Assembly: GCA_050239825.1 (NCBI GenBank)
Contig: JBFXGO010000036.1
Location: 1-21,128, forward strand
Direction: 5' to 3'
Source: a bacterium
GTDB taxonomy: Bacteria > Hydrothermota > 32-111
Length of the DNA: 21,128 nt
Shown here one piece after another: positions 1-20,671 of the stretch. The notes under the pieces are model-generated. The model had not been told where the DNA came from and made no database searches. It was given only the letters and a program-made list of their open reading frames with translations. A program made the translations under genes and the position numbers. How positions within the stretch are numbered: position 1 is the first letter of the stretch; every line of letters starts with the position of its first letter.

Positions 1-1010
1 CGCCGCTTAATCAAGATGGGATGTTGTGGGGACACACCGTAGGAATGTCCCCAAACCACTTGATGGGCGTCTGCGCGGAGCGTCCTCGCCGACTTGTAGC
101 TTTCACTTTCAATAAGTTATTTAATTGTTTAAATCTTCACAAAGCATTGGCTGGGGTGTAATGGAGTCTGCGACTCCATGATAGACGCCTCGGGTTGCAC
201 CAGAACTTTGTGAAGATTATTGTAAAGACAAAATCTTACTCAGCAGTATATTGAATGTTAACTGTACTGCAATTTTTCTTCGGAACTGTAAAGACAAGTC
301 ATTTATTCAACTCCCCGTATTATGCGCAAGGCACATGGCTCACGGCTGATTTGGGGGGCTGCTGGCGGGCTTAGCGTCGGCTCGCACACTCCGCTTCGCC
401 GCTTAATCAAGATGGGTTAGCATAGCAAGGGGAGAACCACTTGATGGGCGTCTGCGCGGAGCGTCCTCGCCGACTTGTAGCTTACACTCTCAATAAGTTA
501 TTTAATTGCCTGTTGCAGTGGGGACACACCGAAGGAATGTCCCCACATTGGCGAGGGTGTAATGGACGCGAGCGTCCATGATAGAAAAAACGGGTTGTAC
601 CAGAAGTTTTAGAAGATTACTGAAAAGACAAAATCTTACTCAGCAGTATATTGAGTGTTAACTGTACTGCAATTTTTCTTCGGAACTGTAAAGCCAAGTC
701 ATTTTCTCAACTCCCCGTATTAAGCTCAAGGCACAAGGCACACGGCTCACGGCTGACTTGAGGGGCTGCTGGCGGGCTTAGCGTCGGCTCACACACTCCG
801 CTTCGCCGCTTAATCAAGATGGGAAAGCGTAGCAAGGGGACGACCACTTGATGGGCGTCTGCGCGGAGCGTCCTCGCCGACTTGAAGCTTACACTTTCAA
901 TAAGAATTGACTTGCTTGTCCTCGGAAAAACATTGAATAGCAGTGCGGAGATGCACTGGAATTTTTCCTCGGAACTGTAAAGACAAGTCATTTACTCAGC
1001 TCCCCGTATT
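1..1010. repeat. Tandem array of imperfect, highly structured ~290-400 bp repeat units (about <1-321, 322-721, 722-1010); candidate ncRNA array or MITE/REP-like composite element
   Basis: CGCCGCTTAATCAAGATGGG recurs at 1, 397 and 804. ACCACTTGATGGGCGTCTGCGCGGAGCGTCCTCGCCGACTTG occurs three times. CTCCCCGTATT occurs at 311, 711 and 1000. Many inverted repeats, no credible ORF. Runs off the left edge of the window. Confidence 0.9.
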
Positions 1011-1019
1011 GTGTTTTGA

Positions 1020-1096
1020 CTTTTACAATCTTTTACCTTTTACCTTTTACCTTTCTTTACTTAGTATCATTTGCCTTTATCCTTTTACACTTTTAC
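1020..1096. repeat. Short tandem heptamer repeats (CTTTTAC)n
   Basis: CTTTTAC at 1020, 1030, 1037, 1044, 1082 and 1090, plus degenerate copies. Confidence 0.7.
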
Positions 1097-1117
1097 ATTC
1101 TTTCTATATCTATTATA

Positions 1118-1146
1118 TTGACTTTACTTTAAATATAATATAAAAT
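1118..1146 (+). promoter_or_regulatory. Sigma70-type promoter for the gcvPB operon
   Basis: TTGACT (1118-1123), 17 bp spacer, TAAAAT (1141-1146); RBS AAGGAG at 1163-1168 before ATG 1174. Confidence 0.65.
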
Positions 1147-1173: not shown

Positions 1174-2628
1174 ATGTACGATAAACTTGTTTTTGAATTG
1201 TCTGATTCAAATAAGAATACGGTATCAATCCCTGAAAACAACTACAACATCAAATTGGAATCCTGCATATCTTCAAAAAACAGAAGAGAAAACGATGCTG
1301 ATATTCCAACAGTGAGCGAGATTGACATATTGCGCCACTTTGTGCTTCTATCCTATAAGAATCATCACCTTCAGAAGGGTTTCTATCCTTTAGGTTCATG
1401 CACAATGAAATATAATCCTGTTATAAATGAGGATATATCATCAAACCCGAAGGTGACAAAAATTCATCCCTATCAGGATATTGAGGATGTACAGGGAATG
1501 CTTAAAATAATGCATGAGCTTCAGTATATGATTCTTGAAATTACAGGATTCGATGCCATGTCACTTCAGCCTGTCGCCGGCGCGCATGGCGAATTTGCAG
1601 GCATGATGATAATGAGCGATTATTTCAAAAGTAAAAATGAGAAGCGCACAAAGATTCTTATTCCGGATTCCGCTCATGGAACAAATCCTGCATCCTGCAC
1701 TTTGGCCGGATTCAAATCAATTCAGATAAAATCAAATGCAAACGGTGAAATAGACCTTGAAGACCTTGATAAAAACATGGATTCCGAAACTGCCGGCATA
1801 ATGATAACAAATCCAAACACACTCGGCATATTTGAAACGCAGATAGAAAAAATCCGGGAAATAGTACATTCGAGGGGCGGTTTGATATACATGGACGGAG
1901 CAAATCTTAATGCGATAATGGGTATAGTGAAACCCGGAGAAATAGGATACGACATTCTTCACATAAATCTACATAAGACATTTTCCACTCCTCACGGAGG
2001 AGGAGGACCCGGAGCAGGCGGAGTCTGCGTCGTGAAGAAACTTTCCGATTTTCTTCCTCCCTTTATAGTGAAAGAAAACAAAAACAGGTATTCTCTTGAT
2101 TATCCAGTGAAATCAATAGGAGCCCTGCACTCATTCTACGGAAATGTCAACATAATGGTTCGTGCATGGGCATATATAAAAATTATGGGAAACGAGGGCA
2201 TAAAGGAAGCAACAAGGATGGCGATTGTAAACGCCAATTACATAAAGTCAAAACTGCGCGGAGTATACGACCTTCCCTATGACAACCCGACTCTCCATGA
2301 AGCAGTGTTCAGCGGAAGAATGCATAAAAAAGAGTATGGTGTCTCAACTCTTGATATAGCGAAACGGCTTCTTGATTACGGATTTCATGCTCCGACGATT
2401 TATTTCCCACTCATAGTATCGGAGGCGATAATGATTGAACCCACTGAAACAGAGACCAAGGAGACTTTAGATATTTTCATAGAGGCGATGAAGAAGATAA
2501 GTGAGGAGGCAAAGACAAATCCGGAACTTCTAAGGAATGCCCCTTCATCAACTCCTGTAACCCGTCTCGATGACATAAAGGCAATGAAGGATATGAATGT
2601 AAACTGGTACGGAGAGAAGCATGCTTGA
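1174..2628 (+). CDS. gcvPB: Glycine dehydrogenase (decarboxylating) subunit 2, glycine cleavage P-protein beta chain
   Basis: Motifs FYPLGSCTMKYNP, QPVAGAHGE, PDSAHGTNPAS, TNPNTLG, PLP-lysine motif HINLHKTFSTPHGGGGPG, DIAKRLLDYGFHAPT, MIEPTETE; 484 aa is typical of the split beta subunit. Confidence 0.97.
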   Translation: MYDKLVFELSDSNKNTVSIPENNYNIKLESCISSKNRRENDADIPTVSEIDILRHFVLLSYKNHHLQKGFYPLGSCTMKYNPVINEDISSNPKVTKIHPYQDIEDVQGMLKIMHELQYMILEITGFDAMSLQPVAGAHGEFAGMMIMSDYFKSKNEKRTKILIPDSAHGTNPASCTLAGFKSIQIKSNANGEIDLEDLDKNMDSETAGIMITNPNTLGIFETQIEKIREIVHSRGGLIYMDGANLNAIMGIVKPGEIGYDILHINLHKTFSTPHGGGGPGAGGVCVVKKLSDFLPPFIVKENKNRYSLDYPVKSIGALHSFYGNVNIMVRAWAYIKIMGNEGIKEATRMAIVNANYIKSKLRGVYDLPYDNPTLHEAVFSGRMHKKEYGVSTLDIAKRLLDYGFHAPTIYFPLIVSEAIMIEPTETETKETLDIFIEAMKKISEEAKTNPELLRNAPSSTPVTRLDDIKAMKDMNVNWYGEKHA

Positions 2629-2968
2629 CAATTTCACTCCTGTCACATATACAGAGATAACCGAAGAGAGAAAGAAAGAGATTTTGCTGAAAATTGCAAA
2701 AAATATTGTGGCGCGCGGTTTAACTACTCCGGCTATAATGTTTCTCGAATCTGTCAAGCCGATGAATTTTGTGGGAGCACAGGTTATGATATTTTTTGAA
2801 CCGATTATACTGACTTTTTTTAATATAAAAGAGTACAGGGAAGCGGCGCTGATGTTTGAGGAGAGAGGCACTGTGGAGAAACTTATAAATGAAATAGAAA
2901 ATGCGGAAAACGAAACAAAGAAAGAAAAAATTAAGGATAAAGAGAAATCTGTTAAGGAGGATAAATGA
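2621..2968 (+). CDS. Small hypothetical protein (115 aa), overlapping both gcvPB and the GlmL-like gene
   Basis: RBS GGAGAG; overlaps the gcvPB stop and has an ATGA overlap with the next gene; helical core PAIMFLESVKPMNFVGAQ. Confidence 0.8.
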   Translation: MLDNFTPVTYTEITEERKKEILLKIAKNIVARGLTTPAIMFLESVKPMNFVGAQVMIFFEPIILTFFNIKEYREAALMFEERGTVEKLINEIENAENETKKEKIKDKEKSVKEDK

Positions 2969-4758
2969 AAGAAAAGAACCTAATTACAAGGATTCTCGCA
3001 ACAGATTGCGGAAGCACTACGACGAAAGCAATCTTGATTGAGAAGCGCGACAATGAGTATAGACTGATAGTCAGAGGCGAGGCTCCTACGACTGTTGAGG
3101 CTCCATACGAAGATGTAACCAAGGGCGTTCTCAACGCGATAAAAGAGGTTGAAGAGCTTGCTGAGATAAAAATTCTCAATGGAGATGATATAATCAAAAG
3201 GGAAAAGAATGAAGGCGACGGAGTGGACATATATATTTCTACTTCATCAGCAGGAGGCGGGCTTCAGATGATGGTTGCCGGAGTTGTTGACAAGATGTCT
3301 GCGGAATCAGCCGCAAGAGCGGCTCTCGGCGCAGGTTCCATAGTTATGGATGTTGTCGCAACCAATGATAAAAGGCTCGACCATGAGAGAATCAAGAGAA
3401 TTAGAACTCTCAGGCCTGACATGATACTTTTATCCGGAGGCACTGACGGAGGCACAATAACCCATGTGGTGCAGTTGGCTGAGATAATCGAGGCGGCTGA
3501 CCCCAAGCCGAGATTCGGCGCAGGATACAAACTGCCCGTTATCTATGCCGGCAACAAGGATGCGGCAGGAGAGGTCGCAAAAAGACTGGACAAGAAAACA
3601 GCTCTCTATGTTGTTGACAATCTTAGGCCGACTCTTGAAAGAGAAAATCTGCAACCTGCAAGAGACAAAATACATGATTTGTTTATGGAGCATGTAATGG
3701 CACAGGCACCCGGATATAAAAAACTTATGGATATGACTGATGTGCCGATTATGCCCACACCCGGAGCTGTAGGGCTTCTTATCGAGGCAATCGGAAATAG
3801 AGACCATATAGAGGTTTTGGGAGTAGATATCGGCGGCGCCACAACGGATGTCTTTTCATTCTTCAAAAAGACATTTAACAGGACAGTCTCCGCAAATCTC
3901 GGAATGAGCTATTCAATATCAAATGTTGTGAAAGAGGCGGGTCTCAAGAATATTATGAGGTGGGTGCCGTTCGAAATGGATGAAAAAGATCTGAGGAACA
4001 GAATAAGAAATAAGATGATAAGGCCCACGACAGTTCCTTCAACACTGGACGAACTTCAGATAGAGCAGGCGATATCAAGGGAGGCTTTGAGGCTTGCTCT
4101 TGAACAGCATAAGGCAATGGCGGTGGAGCTTAAGGGAGTGCAGAAGGAGAGAACAATCTCCGATGCATTTGACCAGTCATCAAGCGGAGGCACGCTTGTA
4201 AATATGCTCACTCTCAACCTTGTTGTCGGCTCCGGAGGTGTGCTGTCGCATGCTCCGAGGAGAGTGCAGTCGGCTCTTATGATGATAGACGCATTCCTGC
4301 CGGAAGGGGTCACAATGCTCACTGTCGATTCAATATTCATGATGCCGCAGCTCGGAGTTCTTTCTACTGTTCATGATCAAGCCGCCACAGAGGTCTTTGA
4401 GAAAGACTGCCTTGTAAGACTTGGGTCATGCATAGCTCCCATAGGAAACTTAAAGGAGGGACAGGAGGCGGTCACAGTCAAATTTGAAGGTCAGGAGCAT
4501 AAGGTGAACTTCGGAGATATTAAGCTTATACCGATGGAACTTGGCAAGAAAGTTAGGGCTACAATAGTTCCTGCAAAATCCCTTGATATGGGAATTGGAA
4601 AAGGAAAGGAAATTGAGGCTGATTTGGAAGGCGGAGTGGTCGGAGTAATAATAGACGCAAGAGGTCGCCGTCCATTCACTCTTCCGGATGACGAGAAGAC
4701 AAGAGTGGAAAAGCTGACAAAGTGGATTAAAGCATTAAACGTCTATCCAGAGAAATAA
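2965..4758 (+). CDS. glmL: Glutamate mutase L (GlmL/MutL-reactivase)-like ASKHA-superfamily ATPase, 597 aa
   Basis: Actin-like ATPase motifs: phosphate-1 DCGSTTTK, STSSAGGGL, LLSGGTDGG, MPTPGAV, phosphate-2 DIGGATTDVFS, RTVSANLGMSYS, adenosine GSGGVLSHAP; RBS AAGGAGG. Confidence 0.85.
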   Translation: MKEKNLITRILATDCGSTTTKAILIEKRDNEYRLIVRGEAPTTVEAPYEDVTKGVLNAIKEVEELAEIKILNGDDIIKREKNEGDGVDIYISTSSAGGGLQMMVAGVVDKMSAESAARAALGAGSIVMDVVATNDKRLDHERIKRIRTLRPDMILLSGGTDGGTITHVVQLAEIIEAADPKPRFGAGYKLPVIYAGNKDAAGEVAKRLDKKTALYVVDNLRPTLERENLQPARDKIHDLFMEHVMAQAPGYKKLMDMTDVPIMPTPGAVGLLIEAIGNRDHIEVLGVDIGGATTDVFSFFKKTFNRTVSANLGMSYSISNVVKEAGLKNIMRWVPFEMDEKDLRNRIRNKMIRPTTVPSTLDELQIEQAISREALRLALEQHKAMAVELKGVQKERTISDAFDQSSSGGTLVNMLTLNLVVGSGGVLSHAPRRVQSALMMIDAFLPEGVTMLTVDSIFMMPQLGVLSTVHDQAATEVFEKDCLVRLGSCIAPIGNLKEGQEAVTVKFEGQEHKVNFGDIKLIPMELGKKVRATIVPAKSLDMGIGKGKEIEADLEGGVVGVIIDARGRRPFTLPDDEKTRVEKLTKWIKALNVYPEK

Positions 4759-4768
4759 CGGAGGAATC

Positions 4769-5890
4769 ATGGCACATTCATATACGCCGGGTTTAAAAGT
4801 AACAGAGAAAGCAATAGTGAGGAAAGAGCGCCGTCTTCCTTTAAAAGGGACTGTCTTGTCCAAAAAGGATGAGATTGTGATGGCGGACGACATTGTCGCT
4901 ACAACATCTCTTCCGGGGGATGTGGAGAGGCTCAATCTAGCAGGAAAGCTGGGAGTTCCTGCAAAAGAGGCACTTTCATTTTTAAAAGTAAAAGCAGGCG
5001 ATGCCATTAAAAAGGATGAAGTGATAGCCGAATCAAAGGGATTCTTCGGTCTCTTCAAATCAACCATACCCTCCCCGATAGACGGATTGGTAGAGTCATA
5101 CTCTGAGATAACGGGAATGCTTACTCTCAGAAAACCGCCCAAGAAGGTTGAGATAGACGCATATGTCAATGGAAAAGTCGTTGATGTGATAGAGAATGAG
5201 GGAATAATCATTGAAACTCCCGCAACATTTATACAGGGAATCTTCGGAATAGGCGGTGAAGTGAAGGGTGTCTTAAAGCTTGTTGCCCAGACTCCTGATT
5301 ATGTGCTGAAACCTCAGGATATAACTGATGAAATGAAAGGCAAGATAATAATTGGCGGTTCTCTGGTGACAAATGAAATACTCAGAGCCTGTGTCGCCAA
5401 AGGCGTTTTGGGAATAGTGGTCGGAGGAATCAATGACAAAGAATTGAAAGAATTCCTCGGAGAGGAGATAGGAGTTGCCATAACCGGACAGGAAGAGAAG
5501 GGAATAACGGTTGTAGTGACCGAAGGATTCGGACAGATGAATATGGCCAGAAAGACATACGAAATTTTGAAAAAGAATGACGGCAAAAAAGCCTCGATAA
5601 ACGGAGCAACGCAGATAAGAGCCGGAGTTCTCCGTCCTGAGGTTATAGTCACATACGATGTGAAGACGACTTTCAGCGAATCAAAGCACACGGAAATGGG
5701 AATGGACATAGGTTCGGTAGTGAGAATAATCCGTCAGCCCTTCTTCGGAGCAATAGGAAAAGTTGTCGGACTTCCGCATCAACTGCAGAAGATTGAGACA
5801 GAGGCGCATGTCAGAGTTCTTGAATTTGAATTCGAGGACGGAAAGAGAATAGTTCTGCCGAGAACCAATGTTGAGTTAATTGAAGAATAA
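4769..5890 (+). CDS. Hypothetical protein with N-terminal barrel-sandwich-hybrid (lipoyl/biotinyl-like, RnfC/NqrA N-terminus-like) motifs and a C-terminal KOW-like motif
   Basis: VKAGDAIKKDEVIAE...IPSPIDGLV resembles a hybrid motif; GSVVRIIRQPFFGAIGKVVGL resembles KOW; RBS GGAGG. Confidence 0.75.
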   Translation: MAHSYTPGLKVTEKAIVRKERRLPLKGTVLSKKDEIVMADDIVATTSLPGDVERLNLAGKLGVPAKEALSFLKVKAGDAIKKDEVIAESKGFFGLFKSTIPSPIDGLVESYSEITGMLTLRKPPKKVEIDAYVNGKVVDVIENEGIIIETPATFIQGIFGIGGEVKGVLKLVAQTPDYVLKPQDITDEMKGKIIIGGSLVTNEILRACVAKGVLGIVVGGINDKELKEFLGEEIGVAITGQEEKGITVVVTEGFGQMNMARKTYEILKKNDGKKASINGATQIRAGVLRPEVIVTYDVKTTFSESKHTEMGMDIGSVVRIIRQPFFGAIGKVVGLPHQLQKIETEAHVRVLEFEFEDGKRIVLPRTNVELIEE

Positions 5891-5904
5891 ATAAAGGAAG
5901 GTGT

Positions 5905-7110
5905 ATGAAGACAAAAATTTTCCTTCTTCTCTTTATCATCCTGCCCGTGATTGCATTTGCTCAGACAGCGGACACAACAGCAACGGATACCACAGGAATC
6001 TATGATTTTACAGCGGTGAAATCATTCACGGTCTCTGATGTCGGTTCGGATGACGGAACAGCTCTGAATGTAAAATGGGAATTTGCCGAAGATCGGCAGA
6101 CAACCGACAAATTCAGACTCTACAGGGAAACAGAGGGCGACACATGCCGACTTTCACTATCGGATTGTACGGGTGTCGGCGAATACACTGATGAGAATCT
6201 CAGCATGAATATTCCGTACAGATACTCCCTTGTGGCTCTCGATTCAATAGGCAATGAAATGAAGGGTAGCATAAGCACAGAATATATGAAGCCGAAGCCG
6301 AATTATTTCAAAAAAGATAAAATAATTCTTCTTCTTATGATTATTGTTTATATGGCTGTGATAATAATTCTTGTTGAGACAGTCAAAAAAGGAAAAGTAT
6401 TGTTTGTAAGAAAAATATCTGGACTAGATACTCTTGATGAAGCCGTGGGAAGAGCAACTGAAATGGGGCGGCCGGTTCTTTATGTTCCCGGTTCCTCCTC
6501 AATGTCGGATATTGCCACCATTGCTTCTCTCAATATTTTGGGTCCTGTCGCCAAGAAGATTGCAGAGTATGACACAAGGCTTATAGTGCCGAATCGGGAC
6601 CCGATTGTAATGACTGTCGCCAAAGAGGTTGTGAAGGAATCTTACTCTGAGGCAGGCAGACCCGATGCTTATAATGACAATGATGTCTTCTTCCTAACCG
6701 ATTCCCAGTTCGGATACGCAGCCGCCATAAGCGGCATTATGACAAGAGAAAAACCTGCAACGAATCTACTGCTCGGAATGTTTTGGGCAGAGTCCCTCAT
6801 CATGGCTGAAGCTGGAAACACTTCCGGAGCGATTCAAATAGCAGGAACTGATGCCGTAACTCAGCTTCCATTCTTCATCACTTCATGCGATTATACTATT
6901 ATCGGAGAGGAGCTCTATGCGGCAAGCGCATATCTTTCAAGAGAGCCGCTCCTGATGGGAACACTGAAGGCTCAGGATTACTTTAAAGGCATGATAATAA
7001 TATGTGTGAGTGTTTATCTGATTTTGCTGATTATATCGACAGTTGCTGGGGGGGATGTATCCTTCCTCAACAAAACGCTTGAAACAATAAGATTCATCTT
7101 CAAATCATAG
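5905..7110 (+). CDS. Membrane module 1 subunit A: signal peptide, FN3-like extracytoplasmic domain, TM, DUF6754-like domain, TM
   Basis: Signal peptide ending AFA-Q; VSDVGSDDGTALNVKW...YRYSLVA is FN3-like; RKISGLDTLDEAVGRATEMGRP and GAIQIAGT...CDYTIIGEE are shared with the paralogue at 9275; DUF6754 assignment is from recall. Confidence 0.8.
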   Translation: MKTKIFLLLFIILPVIAFAQTADTTATDTTGIYDFTAVKSFTVSDVGSDDGTALNVKWEFAEDRQTTDKFRLYRETEGDTCRLSLSDCTGVGEYTDENLSMNIPYRYSLVALDSIGNEMKGSISTEYMKPKPNYFKKDKIILLLMIIVYMAVIIILVETVKKGKVLFVRKISGLDTLDEAVGRATEMGRPVLYVPGSSSMSDIATIASLNILGPVAKKIAEYDTRLIVPNRDPIVMTVAKEVVKESYSEAGRPDAYNDNDVFFLTDSQFGYAAAISGIMTREKPATNLLLGMFWAESLIMAEAGNTSGAIQIAGTDAVTQLPFFITSCDYTIIGEELYAASAYLSREPLLMGTLKAQDYFKGMIIICVSVYLILLIISTVAGGDVSFLNKTLETIRFIFKS

Positions 7111-7118
7111 GAGAGAAT

Positions 7119-7796
7119 ATGTTCATAAGAAGAACTCTACCGCTTCTAATCGCAGGATTCTTCGGAATAGCTTGCATCATCCAGTTCTTTGTTCCGCATC
7201 CTGCTTCACGAACATTTTACAATATGGTTCTTGACTGGATGATAATCGTCACTGCATTCACATATCTGATGGCAGTCCAGTCAACAGTCGAACTCCACAC
7301 GACAAAGATAAAGAGAAGAGTCGAAGGATGGCAGTATTCGCTTGTTGTGTTGATTTCTCTTGCCATTACGGCCTTTATAGGGATTTTAGGAGGCGCATTT
7401 GTCCCTTCAACTCTGCTTATGAAGCTCATACCGGCATTCAAACCTTCAAGCACATCTCCTCTGATGTACACATATCTTTATATGCAGGTTCCAATGCAGT
7501 CAACCATATTCTCGCTTCTGGCATTCTATATGGCATCCGCCGCGTTTCGTTCATTCAAAGCAAGAAGTTTTGACGCGACAATGCTTCTCTTAACAGCGGC
7601 GATTGTCACCATAGGAAGAGTGCCTTTGGGAGAATTCATCTACAAAGGGTTTCCCGAAGTGGTTGAATGGATTTTGAAGTATCCCAATATGGCGGCTCAG
7701 AGAGGAATACTTATTGGAGTTGAGCTGGGAATAATCGCCACCTCTCTCAAAATAATACTTGGAATTGAAAGAAAATACTTGGGAGGCGGAAAATGA
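7119..7796 (+). CDS. Membrane module 1 subunit B: ~6-TM integral membrane protein
   Basis: Multiple hydrophobic segments; PMQSTIFSLLAFYMASAAFRSF and LGIERKYL are shared with the paralogue at 10583. Confidence 0.85.
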   Translation: MFIRRTLPLLIAGFFGIACIIQFFVPHPASRTFYNMVLDWMIIVTAFTYLMAVQSTVELHTTKIKRRVEGWQYSLVVLISLAITAFIGILGGAFVPSTLLMKLIPAFKPSSTSPLMYTYLYMQVPMQSTIFSLLAFYMASAAFRSFKARSFDATMLLLTAAIVTIGRVPLGEFIYKGFPEVVEWILKYPNMAAQRGILIGVELGIIATSLKIILGIERKYLGGGK

Positions 7797-8659
7797 AATT
7801 CGTTAATTTTGTCAACAATCTTGATAAAAGATGGATATATCTTCTTATCGCATTGGTTATAATTATTCCCTTTGTCTTTCCGGTCGGATGTCCGATGAGG
7901 ATTACCCCCCCAGTGCAGTCAATGTATAATTATATAGAAGATTCAATACCGGAGAATGGAGTTCTTCTTTTGGGAATAGATTACGACCCTTCAACGATGG
8001 CTGAGCTTCATCCGATGGCAAAAGCTCTCACATATCATGCTTTTTACAACAATCTCAGAGTTCTTTTCGTAACAATGTACCCTCAGGGTTCGGGAATGGG
8101 GCAGGACATAATAGACAAAACTCTTGAACACTGGAATGAAGTGCATCCTGATTTGAAAAAAGAGCTTGGAAAGGATATCACCCTCCTCGCTTATGTGCCG
8201 GGTGTCTCTGCAGTGATGCTGAAAATGGGTGAAGACATACCTGCAACATTCAATGAAGACGCATACGGAAACAAACTTGAAAACCTTGATGTTATGTCGG
8301 GAATCAAGACATACGACAACCTTAACTATATGGTTGAACTTGCCGGAAGCAGTGTTGTGTTGTCATGGCTCATGTATGCAAACGGAAGATACAACCTGAA
8401 GATGGGTATAGGAACAACGGCAGTCTCTGCGGCCGAGTATTATACTTACCTGCAGTCGGGACAGGCAAACGGTCTCTTGGGCGGGCTTAAAGGCGCCGCC
8501 GAATATGAAAAACTTATAGCCGAAAATCACAGTTACAGCGGAAGAAAGGATGCATCCGTGGGAATGGACGCACAATCAGCCGCGCACATACTCTTCATAC
8601 TTCTTATAATTTTAGGCAATATTGTATTTTTCATAAAGAAACACAAGGAGGGCAGGTAA
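7793..8659 (+). CDS. Membrane module 1 subunit C: alpha/beta domain between an N-terminal and a C-terminal TM helix
   Basis: ATGA overlap with subunit B; IDYDP, GLLGGLKGAAEYE and GMDAQSAAHIL are shared with the paralogue at 11235. Confidence 0.85.
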   Translation: MKFVNFVNNLDKRWIYLLIALVIIIPFVFPVGCPMRITPPVQSMYNYIEDSIPENGVLLLGIDYDPSTMAELHPMAKALTYHAFYNNLRVLFVTMYPQGSGMGQDIIDKTLEHWNEVHPDLKKELGKDITLLAYVPGVSAVMLKMGEDIPATFNEDAYGNKLENLDVMSGIKTYDNLNYMVELAGSSVVLSWLMYANGRYNLKMGIGTTAVSAAEYYTYLQSGQANGLLGGLKGAAEYEKLIAENHSYSGRKDASVGMDAQSAAHILFILLIILGNIVFFIKKHKEGR

Positions 8660-8660
8660 G

Positions 8661-9266
8661 ATGGCAATATCTACTAATATCTGGATTTGGATTGCGGCTC
8701 TTCTTACACTTTCGATTTATTCATTCCTTTACAAGGACAATCCATTTTACAAATTTGCGGAATATCTTCTTGTTGGAATTTCAATAGGATACGGCATCTC
8801 TGTTTATTGGCACAATACAATAATAACAAAAGTTTACAATCCCCTGGTGCATGACAAGGATTTTTTGGTCATTATACCCCTGCTTCTCGGTCTCTTGATG
8901 TTTTCAAGATTTTTCAAAAACTATTCTCATCTTTCGAGAATTCCGATTTCATTCATTGTGGGAGCAGGAACAGGATTGTCAATTCCGTCATCATTTGAAT
9001 TTTTATTCAAACAGGTTCAGGGGACGATGCCTACGGCATTTAATTTCGGAAATTTGATAATAGTTGTAGGAGTTCTGACTACTTTGGTTTATTTCTTCTT
9101 TTCGATGGAGCATAAGGGCTTTGTAGGAAAAATTTCCCGAGTGGGAATAACCTTTATAATGATCGCATTCGGAGCCGCATTCGGATATACAATAATGGCG
9201 AGAATATCGCTGTTTATAGGCAGAATACAATTTCTGCTCTCAGACTGGCTCGGCGTAATCAAATAG
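8661..9266 (+). CDS. Membrane module 1 subunit D: ~6-TM integral membrane protein
   Basis: WIAALLTLSIYSFLYKDNPFYKFAE and FIMIAFGAAFGYTIMARISL are shared with the paralogue at 12071. Confidence 0.85.
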   Translation: MAISTNIWIWIAALLTLSIYSFLYKDNPFYKFAEYLLVGISIGYGISVYWHNTIITKVYNPLVHDKDFLVIIPLLLGLLMFSRFFKNYSHLSRIPISFIVGAGTGLSIPSSFEFLFKQVQGTMPTAFNFGNLIIVVGVLTTLVYFFFSMEHKGFVGKISRVGITFIMIAFGAAFGYTIMARISLFIGRIQFLLSDWLGVIK

Positions 9267-9274
9267 GAGGCCAA

Positions 9275-10576
9275 GTGAAAAGAAACCTTCTCTTGTTGTT
9301 TCTGACGGCTGTACTGCTCTTTTCTGCAGTATCATCACAGGATAAGCCCGTCTCGGAAATTTTGTCGGATTCGATAAACATCGCTGGGGAATCAATCCAG
9401 CTGGGAAAGATTCTCAGTGTTTCCGACATCCCCAATGACGGAGGCGGCGGAGTCGAAATAAACTGGTCTTTAAATGATACTTTATCAAATTATTTTATAA
9501 CGATAATAAGAAGAGAGGGCGATGAAAGAAAAGTCGTGGCTACAGACCTTCTGGCATCAAGTCAGCAGGTAAGAGATGTCAACTCTGATGAAGACAAATC
9601 AAATATAAAAGACGGAACTGAATATTTTTATACGGCTGTTTTGAGCGAGTATGCGATATCACAGGAGATACTCGATTATATGCTCTGCGATTCTTTGGAT
9701 ATGAAATCTCTGAAGATTGCCGATGCAACTCAGACTTACCTTATTTCGGAGGAGAGCGGTCCCGTCACCTCCAAGGCGTCATGGTTCAATCTTGAAAGAT
9801 TTACGGTTCTAATATCGGCAATAATAATTACTTTACTTTTTCTCTTCTACTTCCAGCTTGCAAAGAACGGGAAGGAGTTCTACATAAGGAAAATAAACGG
9901 TCTTGATGCAGTTGAAGAGGCTGTGGGAAGAAGCACAGAGATGGGGAAACCCATAATGTACATCCTTGGAATAGGATATGTCACCGATATTCCGACGATA
10001 GCGGGTTTGACGATTCTCGGGAGAGTCGCCAAGAAGGTCGCGGAATACGAGACAAAGATTCTTGTTCCCTCCTATGACCCGGTTGTAATGACAACGGCTC
10101 AGGAGGTTGTCAAGGAGGCATTTACAGAGGCAGGCAGACCCGATATATACAATAAAAATGACATCATGTATATAACGCAGGACCAGTTCGGATACGCGGC
10201 CGGAGTTGACGGAATGATGATGAGGGAGAAGCCGGGCGCCGTCTTCCTTCAGGGTCTCTTCTTCGCGGAATCTCTTATTCTCGCAGAGACGGGACATTCA
10301 ATAGGCGCTATACAGATAGCAGGGACGACTGAAACAGCGCAACTGCCGTTCTTTGTTGCGGCATGCGATTATACTCTCATAGGAGAGGAGATGATGGCCG
10401 CATCAGTCTATCTTCAGAAGGATCCGCTTATGCTGGGTTCGATAGTGGCTGAAGATGTAATGAAAGTTGTAATAGTGATTATTCTTATAATAGGATTCCT
10501 TCTCGGTGTTCTTGGCCCCGGACTTCATATTGAATTCTTCAACAAACTCTTCAATCTTTTGATTGAGATTCTATAA
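9275..10576 (+). CDS. Membrane module 2 subunit A (paralogue of 5905-7110; DUF6754-like)
   Basis: GTG start with RBS AGGAGG; signal peptide; VSDIPNDGGGGVEINW; RKINGLDAVEEAVGRSTEMGKP; GAIQIAGT...CDYTLIGEE. Confidence 0.82.
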   Translation: MKRNLLLLFLTAVLLFSAVSSQDKPVSEILSDSINIAGESIQLGKILSVSDIPNDGGGGVEINWSLNDTLSNYFITIIRREGDERKVVATDLLASSQQVRDVNSDEDKSNIKDGTEYFYTAVLSEYAISQEILDYMLCDSLDMKSLKIADATQTYLISEESGPVTSKASWFNLERFTVLISAIIITLLFLFYFQLAKNGKEFYIRKINGLDAVEEAVGRSTEMGKPIMYILGIGYVTDIPTIAGLTILGRVAKKVAEYETKILVPSYDPVVMTTAQEVVKEAFTEAGRPDIYNKNDIMYITQDQFGYAAGVDGMMMREKPGAVFLQGLFFAESLILAETGHSIGAIQIAGTTETAQLPFFVAACDYTLIGEEMMAASVYLQKDPLMLGSIVAEDVMKVVIVIILIIGFLLGVLGPGLHIEFFNKLFNLLIEIL

Positions 10577-10582
10577 GGAGGA

Positions 10583-11224
10583 ATGATGTTGAAAAGCAAA
10601 AACATTCCATTGGCGATAACATTCATAGTCGGTCTTATAATGATTGTTTCATTCTTCATTCCCCACAAACCATTCGGCGATATTGAACAGATATCTCTTA
10701 AATGGTATTCAATCATTGCGGGATTCACAATGCTTTTAGGAGTAGATTCTCTAATAGGTCTTCACTACAGGAAAATCAAGAGAAAAGAAGAGAATTGGAT
10801 ACATTCCATAGTCCTCATAGCCGGATTTGTAATGGTTGTGATAGCCGGAGTTGTTGGCACGGTGCAATTCGGCAGCGCATTTGATGAAAGATCTTTCTTT
10901 ACCTACATCTACAACTATTTCATAGTTCCTCTTCAGGCTACGATGTTTTCTCTTCTTGCTTTCTTCGTTGCATCAGCCGCATACAGGGCATTCAGAGCAA
11001 GAAATACGGATGCGGCCCTTCTTCTGATAACAGCTGTGATTGTTATGCTTGGAAGAGTTCCCATAGGAGAAGTAATCTCTCCTTACCTGCCGAGATTTAC
11101 AGACTGGATAATGGAGGTCCCGCAGATGGCCGCAAAGAGGGGCATCGGACTCGGGATTTATCTCGGGGCTCTGGGAGTCTCAATAAGAATAATTTTAGGT
11201 ATTGAAAGAAGCTACCTATCATAA
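10583..11224 (+). CDS. Membrane module 2 subunit B (paralogue of 7119-7796); start may be 10586
   Basis: PLQATMFSLLAFFVASAAYRAF and LGIERSYL; RBS AAGGAGG. Confidence 0.85.
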   Translation: MMLKSKNIPLAITFIVGLIMIVSFFIPHKPFGDIEQISLKWYSIIAGFTMLLGVDSLIGLHYRKIKRKEENWIHSIVLIAGFVMVVIAGVVGTVQFGSAFDERSFFTYIYNYFIVPLQATMFSLLAFFVASAAYRAFRARNTDAALLLITAVIVMLGRVPIGEVISPYLPRFTDWIMEVPQMAAKRGIGLGIYLGALGVSIRIILGIERSYLS

Positions 11225-11234
11225 TGGAGAATGT

Positions 11235-12071
11235 ATGAAAATATTTGAAAAATTAGCTCATATTGACAGAAGGTACATCTACATACTAATCGCCGTTGTA
11301 GTCATAGTGCCACTTCTGTTAAAACCGAAATTGCCTATAATACCGACCAAGCCGGTGAAGGATATATATGAGTATGTTGAAAATCTCCCTCAGGGAAGCA
11401 ATATACTTATTTCAATAGATTATGATGCGGCTTCAATGCCGGAACAACAGCCGTTTTTGGAGGCATTGCTGAGGCAGTGTTTCAGAAACAAATTAAAACC
11501 TGTAATGATAGTGCAATGGCAGCTCGGCGCTCCTTTGGGAACTCAGGGTCTGGAGAAGATAGCCAAAGAGTGCAATGCCGTCTATGGAGTAGATTATATC
11601 AATCTCGGCTATCGTCCGGGATATGTGGCGCAGATGGTGGGTATAGGCCGCGAGATAAGGGATTATTTCGCAGTCGACTACAAGAATGTCTCTATAGATT
11701 CATTCCCAATAATGAAGAATATTCACAATTACAATGATTTTGCGCTTCTCGTCGGTCTTGAAGCAGGCGCAACCTACCTCCTGTGGGTTGAATATGCCGG
11801 AGGAAGGTTCAAGCAGAAGATTGCTCTGGCTTTAAATGCGGTATCTGCTCCGGATGCATATTACTTTTATCAGTCAAAACAGATAATAGGATTGGTGGGA
11901 GGAATGAAGGGAGCCGCAGAATATGAAGTATTGGAAAACAAAGTAGACCTTGCAGTTGCCGGAATGGCGTCGCAATCATATTCGCACATTCTCATAATTC
12001 TTTTCATTATATTCGGTAACATTGCATTTTTTGTTGAAAAGAACAGAAAGAAAAAGGAAGGAGGCAATTAA
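11235..12071 (+). CDS. Membrane module 2 subunit C (paralogue of 7793-8659)
   Basis: ATG 11235 with RBS GGAGA preferred over TTG 11202 because MKIFEKL aligns to the paralogue start MKFVNFV; IDYDA and GLVGGMKGAAEYE. Confidence 0.85.
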   Translation: MKIFEKLAHIDRRYIYILIAVVVIVPLLLKPKLPIIPTKPVKDIYEYVENLPQGSNILISIDYDAASMPEQQPFLEALLRQCFRNKLKPVMIVQWQLGAPLGTQGLEKIAKECNAVYGVDYINLGYRPGYVAQMVGIGREIRDYFAVDYKNVSIDSFPIMKNIHNYNDFALLVGLEAGATYLLWVEYAGGRFKQKIALALNAVSAPDAYYFYQSKQIIGLVGGMKGAAEYEVLENKVDLAVAGMASQSYSHILIILFIIFGNIAFFVEKNRKKKEGGN

Positions 12072-12688
12072 TGGCAACTACAATAGGCATTTGGATAGCC
12101 GCTGGTCTAACTTTATTTATATACTCTTTCCTCTATAAAGACAATCCGTTTTATAAATTCGCAGAGCATTTGTATGTGGGTATTACGGCCGGCTATTGGC
12201 TGATTTATACTTGGGCTTACACAATTCAGCCGATGCTTCTTGACCCTATAATAAAAAATAAGGAATTCATTCTTATCATTCCGGCTTTTTTCGGAATAAT
12301 TATGCTCACGAGATGGTTCCCGGCAATTTCTTGGCTTTCAAGATGGTCGATTGCTTTTACAGTGGGAATTGGAGCGGGACTTGGAGTGACGGGGTCCATA
12401 CAGGGTTTCATTCTTCCTCAGCTTAAATCAACCATTCTTCCAATTACAGGATTTGATTTTGCCACTTTCAACAATCTGCTTATAATATTCGGAGTGATTA
12501 CAACTCTTGTGTATTTTTATTTTTCAAAAGATCACAAAGGATTCCTTGGACACGGAGCAAAAATCGGAATGACCTTCATAATGATAGCATTCGGCGCATC
12601 CTTCGGATATACTGTTATGGCTCGTATCTCACTCCTGATAGGAAGAATCTACTTTTTAATGTTTGACTGGCTGGGGTCTATCTTTTAG
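12071..12688 (+). CDS. Membrane module 2 subunit D (paralogue of 8661-9266)
   Basis: TAATG overlap with subunit C; IYSFLYKDNPFYKFAE is identical to the paralogue; FGYTVMARISL. Confidence 0.85.
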   Translation: MATTIGIWIAAGLTLFIYSFLYKDNPFYKFAEHLYVGITAGYWLIYTWAYTIQPMLLDPIIKNKEFILIIPAFFGIIMLTRWFPAISWLSRWSIAFTVGIGAGLGVTGSIQGFILPQLKSTILPITGFDFATFNNLLIIFGVITTLVYFYFSKDHKGFLGHGAKIGMTFIMIAFGASFGYTVMARISLLIGRIYFLMFDWLGSIF

Positions 12689-19270: not shown

Positions 19271-19561
19271 ATGAAGTGTTAAAGGAATGGGGATGTTCAT
19301 ATAAGAATTTGGTTTCCTCTCTCTCTACAAAATCAGCGTTTAAGAGTAATTCAAAGGATTTTAACAATCATATGCATCATTACAACTGGGATGCTAATTA
19401 ATTCGGAAGAACAATCAGTCTCTGATTCTTTAAATTGTGCTACTTTAGGAAAAATATCATTATCGTTTGTTGAGGATGTTTCCATTATGGATGAAATAGC
19501 ATACGTAGCAAATGCAGGGGGAGGTCTTTCTTTAATTGATATAAGCAATTTCACAAGATAA
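19271..19561 (+). pseudogene. Disrupted 5' fragment of an LVIVD-repeat secreted protein
   Basis: The + frame reads ...QRILTIICIITTGMLINSEEQ...VEDVSIMDEIAYVANAGGGLSLIDISNFTR* (signal-like segment plus one LVIVD repeat). There is an in-frame TAA at codon 4 from ATG 19271, and GTG 19276 is in another frame. The frame ends at the IS remnant. Confidence 0.65.
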
Positions 19562-19703
19562 TGGCCTCTTGAAATAGGACACGATTTAATGATAGAATGT
19601 GTTAAAAAAGGAGGTAGAAACGGACTACAAGAGACACGAATCGGGATTCAAGGCGAAAGTTGCGCTGGAGGCAATAAGTGAGGTTGATATTAAAAAAATA
19701 TAA
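19557..19703 (+). mobile_element. IS3-family left-end remnant (IRL-like sequence plus first codons of OrfA)
   Basis: ATGGCCTCTTGAAATAGGACAC resembles an IS3 IRL. RBS AAGGAGGT is followed by ACG (19620; probable mutated ATG) and DYKRHESGFKAKVALEAISE, matching the HTH_Tnp_1 start motif FKAKVALEA. Confidence 0.7.
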
Positions 19704-19818
19704 AAGAAAGCATCAATCATTAAGATACAAAACTCCATCTGAAGTTTATGGAGGTATTACAAATGTTCAAACAGCTTAACAGTAAACACAATTTATCAAA
19801 ATCTTGTGTCTTGACAGA

Positions 19819-20505
19819 TTATTCTTTTACAAGTTTTTGCGATTTAAGGATTCTGTAAACAGAACTTAGAGACATAAAGAACCTTCCTGATTCATGACCA
19901 TATACAAAGATGTGACTTATAGGCTTATTCCAGAATCTTTCATCCCAAGCAGTATTGATAACAGCATCCCTTTCCTGAGGGAGGATTTTGTTCCATGCAG
20001 TTCGAGGTTTAAGAGGTTTTGGATTAGCCCATCTTCTATATTTACGGGTGTCTATGTCTATTATGGAGCACGACTCTTTCTGTGTTAAACCGTTATCAAT
20101 AGATTCTTTAATTGCAGTAACCACTTTTTGTTTTACCTCATTACTGAAATGACCTTTAAGATGTCCCTTAAGGTTCAGTCCACTCTTTTTTTTTAGCAAG
20201 GATAGCTTGTGCCCGACAGCGGCTAATGCATCTTTGGTGTTTTGCAGTTCCTGATTGACTTTCTCCAGTTCCTCCACAGGTACAAGCTGTTGCTTCCGTC
20301 CCGGCTTTCCCCTCTGTGCCAATGCAGACAATGCCGCAGATTGAACCTTCTTGCGGATGATTACAAGATCCCATGGCTTGAGATTGTGTTTTTTGAGAAT
20401 CTGTTTGACTGGAGCATTCGGCAAATTGCATTCCGTGTAAATCTGAAACAACTGTTCCGGAGTCAATTTTGACTTCTCTTTCTTCGTGTTTAGGATAGTG
20501 TCCAA
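19819..20505 (-). pseudogene. IS3-family transposase fragment: OrfA (HTH plus coiled coil) fused in frame to the OrfB N-terminus
   Basis: Coiled coil ending LSLLKKK at an A9G tract; then CSIIDIDTRKYRRW...NKILPQERDAV...SLSSVYRILK, typical of the OrfB N-terminus; stops before the rve/DDE core. Confidence 0.72.
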
Positions 20506-20566
20506 TTTTTACCTCCTGTAAGATTATTATAACTATTCCGCCGATAAATGCAACCGAGGCGGCTCA
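19819..20566 (-). mobile_element. Truncated IS3-family element (left inverted repeat to mid-OrfB; DDE domain and right end absent)
   Basis: Minus strand begins TGAGCCGCCTCGGTTG at 20566 (IS3-type TG end), followed by RBS AGGAGGT and a transposase ORF. Confidence 0.7.
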
Positions 20567-20595
20567 ATATACAGGGGTTACCACCTGTATATTGA
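20564..20595. repeat. Perfect 12-bp inverted repeat abutting the IS3 end
   Basis: TCAATATACAGG (20564-20575) / CCTGTATATTGA (20584-20595). Confidence 0.75.
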
Positions 20596-20671
20596 AAAAC
20601 CATCATTCATAGTGTATTATTTACACTATATGAGGACACTATCGCTGATAAACTCGGCAACCATTTAAGTA

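Follow-up and report, generated by a model that had tools for sequence, protein, structure and literature searches.

What kind of element forms the array of structured repeats at the left end of this DNA, and does it act as RNA or as DNA? The stretch analysed here (the window, 21,128 nt) is contig C61 of a 2.1-Mb draft genome (G000). The first-pass annotation of its sequence had left two branches, a repeated ~360-nt ncRNA of the plus strand and a non-autonomous element handled as single-stranded DNA (ssDNA). Comparing the array with its copies in the same and related genomes, we find that it is probably a genus-specific, non-coding, selfish mosaic of the NIME/BIME kind, likely folded as ssDNA and likely spread by nuclease-triggered recombination, and not an RNA. 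The copy number, the intergenic position, the order and polarity of the modules, the matches between spacers and gene ends, the covariation of paired arms, the shuffling of modules and the gain and loss of sites between species are observed, and this reading is built on them.

Three copies of a ~290-nt core lie in the window, each made of rod A, a linker, rod C and tail D, and the repeats there are 84-97% identical. The array runs leftward onto contig C30, whose end overlaps window positions 1-127 exactly and uniquely (127 nt), and rightward to about position 1100 as TTTTAC-type heptamers. The joined array reads, in order, secreted-protein gene, terminator-like hairpin, tail D, Ssn-type hairpin, three units, heptamers, promoter-like site and gcvPB. 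The annotation had proposed a look for a transposase or similar gene to the left of the window; contig C30 carries the terminator and the secreted-protein gene there, and no transposase. The features are as follows.

1-95, plus strand: 3′ part of rod A of unit 1, with a T1 palindrome in its loop; the unit starts on contig C30.
28-52, plus strand: T1 palindrome, GGGGACA...TGTCCCC with a CCGTAGG loop; its start agrees with GGGGWSAS, the motif given for TIRYT terminal repeats in the available part of PMC3733652.
97-128, plus strand: linker B of unit 1.
132-218, no strand assigned: rod C2, with a 13-bp outer stem, a conserved CATTG bulge and a tip hairpin at 161-179; pair probability 0.96-0.97.
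224-316, plus strand: tail D, hairpin E1 (243-270) and a second tail D.
324-347, plus strand: spacer H7, GGC(T/A)CA(C/A/T) heptamers, which resemble the flanks of the four-helix-bundle gene on G000 contig C49 and lie inside the 308-316/353-361 pairing.
353-476, minus strand: start motif and rod A1 (373-476) of unit 2; best fold on the minus strand.
Within 373-476, minus strand: conserved internal loop of the unit 2 rod A1 (G·A/A·G, G-Y, G·G).
479-618, plus strand: linker B, then T1 (520-544) where rod C2 would have its left arm, the tip hairpin at 562-579 and an unpaired C2 right arm.
624-716, plus strand: tail D, hairpin E1 (643-670) and a second tail D.
724-754, plus strand: spacer H7 heptamers, identical at 26 of 33 positions to the downstream flank of the four-helix-bundle gene.
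760-883, minus strand: start motif and rod A1 (780-883) of unit 3, with GCGTAGC in its loop on the plus strand.
886-998, no strand assigned: linker B, alternative rod C3 (919-973) and tail D (975-998).
919-973: internal feature of rod C3, TC/TC on the plus strand and tandem G·A on the minus strand.
1018-1100, plus strand: TTTTAC(C/A) heptamer run closing the array; similar heptamers stand beside the four-helix-bundle gene of genome G002.
1118-1146, plus strand: sigma-70-like promoter match (10 of 12), predicted by consensus, downstream of the array and upstream of gcvPB.
1174-2628, plus strand: gcvPB, glycine dehydrogenase subunit 2 (NF003346, 696 bits against a cut-off of 441), a host neighbour outside the element.

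Elsewhere in the window, nested insertion-sequence remnants occupy 19558-20650 (a multicopy non-coding element of ~260 nt and an IS3/IS481-like fragment of 228 aa). An operon at 2965-12688 contains a MutL/GlmL-like gene (PF13941) and a membrane block of four genes, DUF6754 among them, that is present twice (5905-9266 and 9275-12688).

The array is not an assembly artefact, a possibility that the annotation had raised. Unitigs of run X1 at single-copy depth (22-28) cover 264-370, 664-736 and 965-2700 with 0 mismatches; this evidence consists of contigs, and among the pieces listed none spans the whole array. The summed depth in run X1 was ~4800 on the core against 22 on the gene, while runs X2, X3 and X6 covered only fragments. 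In run X2 the summed contig depth reached ~2100 on rod A in window 721-900 with almost none on gcvPB, and a relative with many core copies may be present in that sample.

Checking the proposed helices, we found all of them in place and complementary. Pairing is perfect in 376-381/469-474, 389-394/456-461, 406-411/440-445 and 941-946/953-958, and includes one G·T in 643-650/663-670. It is also perfect in both 161-168/172-179 and 562-569/572-579, where the changes in the two arms match. Unit 345-725 folds with z scores of -3.2 on the plus strand and -4.4 on the minus strand, and 0 of 100 shuffles fold as well. The architecture drawn around these helices did not hold. The 'closing helix' 353-361/708-716 is complementary at 8 of 9 positions and reaches a pairing probability of 0.00-0.01 when 1-1010 is folded; 353-361 pairs across a short spacer with 308-316 (0.62 on plus, 0.68 on minus). 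The GAGA loop, taken for a GNRA loop, is GGAGCT or of the TTAAGC type in relatives and so is unconserved. Unit 3, said to lack the middle domain, carries the alternative rod C3 (919-973); it is unit 2 that has lost the outer stem of rod C2, its left arm being replaced by the T1 palindrome.

The repeat is abundant in its own genome. Counting arrays with at least three modules, and dropping five single-motif clusters as chance, we found 46 arrays, each of 1-6 units and with 110 core copies in all, which take up 41.8 kb (~2% of the G000 genome). All 46 arrays are extragenic, lying between ORFs or at contig ends, with units head-to-tail and no ORFs found between them. In genome G002, two cores stand tail-to-tail at L076 and L077, against the head-to-tail rule of G000. 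The modules always follow one another as start motif, rod A, linker B, rod C, tail D and spacer, and the rod C slot holds C2, C3, C4 or T1 with a half rod. Polarity is nearly fixed as well (rod A start 127 of 129, SRM 45 of 47, tail D 144 of 145). Tags occur on spacers only; rod A, with a length of 82-131 nt, carries none. The spacer after tail D (n = 122) is a heptamer run in 47 cases, SRM in 38, E1 in 14 and others in 23; in total there are 47 SRM and 47 heptamer spacers, plus TIR and other types. A CRISPR-like or guide array was rejected because the variable parts are recurring modules and not unique spacers.

Its range is narrow. A covariance model found the core in 3 of 151 genomes of the phylum, all three of one WOR-3 genus, and BLAST found it in 4 of 41 genomes, the fourth as a single weak match. 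The annotation had recognised no known family, which is right for the core and wrong for the spacers, which match the ends of small genes. Rfam gave no match at the gathering threshold for the whole window, at E ≤ 5 for 1-1200 or at E ≤ 1 for five other array loci, and the core had no match in plasmid and phage collections searched in distant mode. Pattern scans returned 10 viral loci, none with a significant model match, and 90 metagenome stretches, of which 80 were screened and 1 was a true copy (L190). The genome-collection scan returned 16 loci, all of this lineage by sequence save one chance match; the array contigs L041, L042, L045, L047, L053 and L054, in assemblies labelled Firmicute or archaeon, are probably misbinned. 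Literature searches on four-helix bundles with heptamers and on WOR-3 with repeats left the repeat family undescribed among the matches listed.

Is the pairing maintained, as first proposed? Between subfamilies it is: rod A shows double changes at 17 of 25 pairs among 22 variants, a score that 0 of 500 shuffles reach, and 90% of alignment cells pair, compared with at most 41% in slid controls. These 22 non-redundant variants were taken from 73 and represent only about five lineages, and the structure was drawn from the same sequences. Within the window the covariation claim fails for rod A, because the three rod-A helices are almost invariant in the 99 main-subfamily copies. Paired arms are linked, in 54 of 59 copies for the tip hairpin and in 35 of 38 for C2 across ~70 nt (Fisher p = 2e-5). 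The 15 variable sites in G000 are unlinked (r2 ≤ 0.11), and 91 units hold 89 haplotypes. Selection or arm-to-arm copying could each give the arm linkage. Where A1 stems carry rare variants, these disrupt pairing to a similar extent whichever strand is read, by our own count. The starts and ends of rod C are never chimeric between types (C2-C2 35, C3-C3 22, C4-C4 18), and the left arm of rod C is missing in 25 of 104 units.

The annotation had favoured a plus-strand RNA from a few G·U pairs, and for rod A the larger alignment reverses that call: read as the minus strand, the 22 variants have 49 G·T against 13 A·C cells. The minus strand also carries a conserved tandem in the internal loop of rod A (G·A in 22 of 22 rows, A·G in 21 of 22), and at two more places tandem G·A stands in lieu of Watson-Crick pairs (in 6 and 5 of 22 rows). 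Rods C3 and C4 carry the same tandem G·A. Sampling 20 and 14 of the 99 units, we obtained the lower z on the minus strand in 17 of 20 with RNA energies and in only 9 of 14, a weak preference, with DNA energies. Counting the outer stems of rod C by eye, with chance rows dropped, nine rods had minus-strand wobbles and zero had plus-strand ones. Other features belong to the plus strand. Hairpin E1 and the spacer helix have their wobbles there; 85 of 91 rod-A loops contain the mini-hairpin GCGNAGC with a free N, and the T1 loop reads CCG[AT]AGG in 45 of 46 copies. Arrays contain 334 of the genome's 802 GCGNAGC motifs, and many copies sit in the stem of rod A, where they compete with it. Tandem sheared G·A pairs are stable in DNA; our literature search on them in ssDNA returned no source for this stability. 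The mini-hairpins of the GCGNAGC type are far more stable in DNA than in RNA, according to the part of PMC13037366 available. With the mini-hairpins mostly on plus and the wobbles and tandem G·A on minus, the features point, indirectly, to DNA more than to one RNA strand.

Of the two original branches, the element handled as ssDNA is the better supported. The repeated ~360-nt plus-strand ncRNA is weakened, as the units have no fixed ends and the closing helix is unformed in context. The reversed strand argument for rod A, the losses of the rod C left arm (25 of 104) and the origin of the spacers as ends of other elements count further against it, and a closed 360-nt RNA of the plus strand was rejected. 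A different RNA reading has the core as a multicopy structured ncRNA, most likely of the minus strand, or an RNA-level element, with the ends of other elements merely inserted alongside. We regard it as distinctly unlikely. The strong covariation between subfamilies would suit it, as would the clearer minus-strand preference with RNA energies (17 of 20) and the absence of chimeric rod C types; tandem G·A and G·U wobbles are also common in RNA. Such an RNA would have to tolerate ragged ends, frequent half-units, the lost left arms of rod C and a closing helix that does not form, it has no Rfam match, and in 18 of the 19 gaps between co-directional genes its strand would run antisense to both neighbours. 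The only reverse transcriptase that we found (G000:C17:33697-35190, L025; 497 aa, no intron features by eye), possibly a defence-type enzyme, lies far from the arrays.

The spacers say more about the ssDNA mosaic that we prefer. Arrays with their margins make up 2.6% of the genome, and against this background three kinds of gene end are concentrated there. The SRM-type spacer matches a ~50-nt TGTC-tagged hairpin upstream of a 94-aa GIY-YIG gene (PF01541, G000:C27) that has hairpins on both sides, and 57 of the 75 genomic matches of the upstream hairpin fall in or at arrays. This hairpin-gene-hairpin layout is that of ssnA, and Ssn cuts ssDNA next to such hairpins and is inactive on RNA or dsDNA, as reported in the portion of PMC11893778 at hand. 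The intact G000 ssn gene stands one gene and a tRNA away from an array. In G001 the downstream hairpin of a broken ssn gene runs directly into an array and recurs in L002, and in G002 a second ssn end recurs in L082-L084. The match between spacer and ssn is species-specific, the arrays of relatives carrying their own ssn ends. Beside the G000 ssn gene lies a tandem structured ~140-nt repeat (G000:C27:46400-46810; also C7:73238-73595), and G002 has a tRNA gene at the matching place. At G000:C27:45279-45410 (L028), and also in G002, T1 palindromes flank a ~70-nt GC-rich insert that follows a tRNA gene and partly copies its 3′ end.

The second kind of end comes from Y1 genes. G000 has four, with a C-terminal HTH, each bounded by terminal inverted repeats with dispersed halves, as TIRYTs are bounded by terminal inverted repeats in the available text of PMC3733652 and PMC6006769; NF047646 scored 57 and 73 bits on Y1 genes, below its cut-off of 80. 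Their terminal repeats lie at arrays in 12 of 22 cases for C5, 7 of 23 for C14, 3 of 12 for C18 and 1 of 11 for C56, and one array match to the left terminal repeat of the C5 gene is identical at 31 of 31 positions. The G000 Y1 genes adjoin no array; a G001 Y1 gene abuts one on one side, across an N gap. Gene-less, MITE-like pairs of TIRYT terminal repeats 150-210 nt apart occur at C14:36255-36465, C19:6836-6983, C19:9972-10119, C28:13896-14106, C41:22136-22345 and C47:6392-6603 of G000.

The third kind includes the window's own spacers, which are of the four-helix-bundle heptamer type. Four-helix-bundle genes (TIGR02436) at G000:C49:6990-7830 (L026) and at L263 of G002 are flanked by inverted runs of 7-nt repeats whose sequence differs by species, which suggests a mobile class with heptamer-run ends; our literature search turned up no paper about such genes. 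The flank of the C49 gene has 26 of 38 matches at arrays, and GGC(T/A)CA-type heptamer runs have 52 of 75. Judging from these flanks and from internally deleted TIR pairs, the Ssn, Y1 and four-helix-bundle genes would all be mobile.

No mover of the core itself emerged. We found no gene flanked by rod A or rod C. Of the 14 genomes of the family, 13 have Y1 genes and 6 have Ssn-like genes, mostly without the core, so their presence does not explain it. The search for a GxxExxY gene as candidate mover gave none. The three genus genomes had no TnpB above cut-off and no Y2 transposase (the control likewise without any match), IS110 was found as fragments only, away from arrays, and the 5 PF00589 matches in G000 lie beside no array. 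The core could also descend from an autonomous ssDNA element (PATE-, IS91- or REPtron-like), now lost or unassembled, whose left and right ends have fused and are still moved in trans as a unit, with a preference for existing REP-type hairpins. The strand-specific, invariant non-canonical loop of the core resembles a protein recognition site, and the head-to-tail arrays would agree with it. So would the rod-A start, since 8 of its 24 truncations or variant junctions associated with arrays (26 rows less two coding chance matches) lie at positions 15-18 beside the conserved loop, and the G002 arrays that often begin right after a GTAG-type palindrome. Against such a parent, we see neither fixed ends nor a target duplication, 89 of 91 units are distinct mosaics instead of recent identical copies, TnpB stayed below cut-off in the three genus genomes, and the IS110 fragments lie away from arrays. 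We think it unlikely.

Array sites are gained and lost between species. Array ends are ragged and half-units are frequent; the first and last modules vary. A MITE was rejected, as the unit has neither terminal inverted repeats nor fixed ends, and comparisons of filled and empty sites showed no target duplication. At most of the relatives' array sites that we examined, G000 has no array alongside; some sites are shared and differ in content or orientation, the array being reversed relative to the same gene at three of them, and array remnants lie upstream of gcvPB in both relatives. In G000 the plus strand of the array follows both flanking genes in the same 18 of 19 gaps and agrees with the inferred leading strand for 34 of 41 arrays and 24 of 29 contigs (p = 5.5e-4 against 50%), including 13 of 16 arrays with opposed flanking genes. 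Since 73% of genes, and 30 of 43 tRNAs, are also on the leading strand, array polarity is not clearly above that of genes, and replication is not separated from transcription. A first replichore model based on codon usage (7 of 21) was discarded after it drifted to AT-rich foreign genes.

Could all this be neutral junk, tandem duplication and gene conversion with matched arms made by quasi-palindrome template switching and no selection on structure? Units within an array are more alike than units across contigs (5.1 against 6.2 differences), and broken rods persist, as would be expected. Template switching perfects imperfect inverted repeats, according to the available part of PMC7202029. Copying from arm to arm would erase mismatches, but the G·A/A·G/G·G loop persists between flanking stems that change, and tandem G·A replaces Watson-Crick pairs at the two further places. 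The polarity is fixed, too, arrays on one contig always sharing a strand (9 of 9 contigs). We hold the neutral account to be very unlikely.

Under the ssDNA mosaic that we favour, the hairpins would form on ssDNA during replication. Ssn may then nick beside its hairpin, Y1 enzymes may act at the terminal repeats, or both. Repair of the nicks by recombination among the ~110 copies could give tandem gains, module swaps and new sites, with pairing presumably kept by selection for recognition, by arm-to-arm copying, or by both. A bolder form of this model, for which we see only a slim chance, makes the core a strand-specific site of ssDNA capture and recombination, with the invariant tandem G·A loop, that joins the ends of three unrelated single-gene elements into ordered, replication-oriented trains. 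If true, Ssn, TIRYT Y1 and four-helix-bundle genes would share one ssDNA mobility route.

The origin and spread of REP-type repeats are still an open question. In the sections of PMC3733652 available, CGTC-type repeats are described as lacking a transposase, and a link between them and Ssn came as late as 2025, in those of PMC11893778. In the small genome studied here, individual ordered arrays combine an Ssn hairpin with the terminal repeats of TIRYTs and the heptamers of four-helix-bundle genes, which supplies defined substrates and small candidate enzymes for in vitro work. The case is also a warning for ncRNA screens, as DNA hairpins are the most likely source of the strong covariation seen here and a strand called from few G·U pairs can turn out to be the opposite one. 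Assemblies of this genus are broken by the family, too. Should it be no more than a selfish repeat, its importance would be modest.

How does the array compare with known systems? HEARO and omega-RNA arrays are multicopy large ncRNAs and resemble it in size, multi-helix fold and copy number. The repeat differs in having no Rfam match, no fixed ends and no nuclease ORF inside or beside the unit. Integron attC arrays, as covered by the available text of PMC5371416, are likewise head-to-tail rows of long, imperfect hairpins whose unpaired features are specific to one strand. In sedentary integrons the attC bottom strands lie on the leading-strand template, and by analogy rod A seems to have its better-folding strand there in most arrays, the orientation bias here being unseparated from gene bias. 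Unlike an integron, the family has no gene cassettes between units, no tyrosine recombinase gene beside arrays and 46 dispersed sites; an integron cassette array was rejected on the missing ORFs and PF00589 gene.

REP, BIME and REPIN sequences with RAYTs, and TIRtrons, come closer. Taking what is accessible of PMC3733652 and PMC6006769, they too are extragenic, multicopy, palindromic, mosaic and genus-restricted; TGTC-tagged and GTAG-type hairpins are among the modules here, and the genome has Y1 genes bounded by TIRs with dispersed halves. REP is a 20-40-nt palindrome tagged GTAG or CGTC, whereas the core rods are 80-130 nt and untagged. BIME units alternate (PMC2817692, available part), whereas the units here are head-to-tail with one polarity. 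No Y1 gene is flanked by the core, all 4 in G000 being bounded by TIRs. The TIRtron/TIRYT type, Y1 with terminal inverted repeats and dispersed copies, is present and fits some spacers only.

In the NIME system, dRS3/NTS hairpins and RS elements (PMC1797815) go with the GIY-YIG nuclease SsnA (PMC11893778), as far as the available parts of both papers describe it. The constant part here is a large covarying two-rod core, the Ssn hairpin being one of several spacer types. That hairpin is long (~50 nt) and is not dRS3, whose ATTCCC-N8-GGGAAT delimits every NIME module, and other spacers match the ends of Y1 and four-helix-bundle genes. The repeat works like a NIME or BIME, but we do not file it as a member of either, because it fails defining features of each. 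Array content that changes at shared loci may be one likeness to NIME/Ssn. Clearer ones are the long intergenic arrays, where hairpins of the Ssn type alternate with repeat modules of 50-150 nt, and an ssn-like gene that has these hairpins on both sides.
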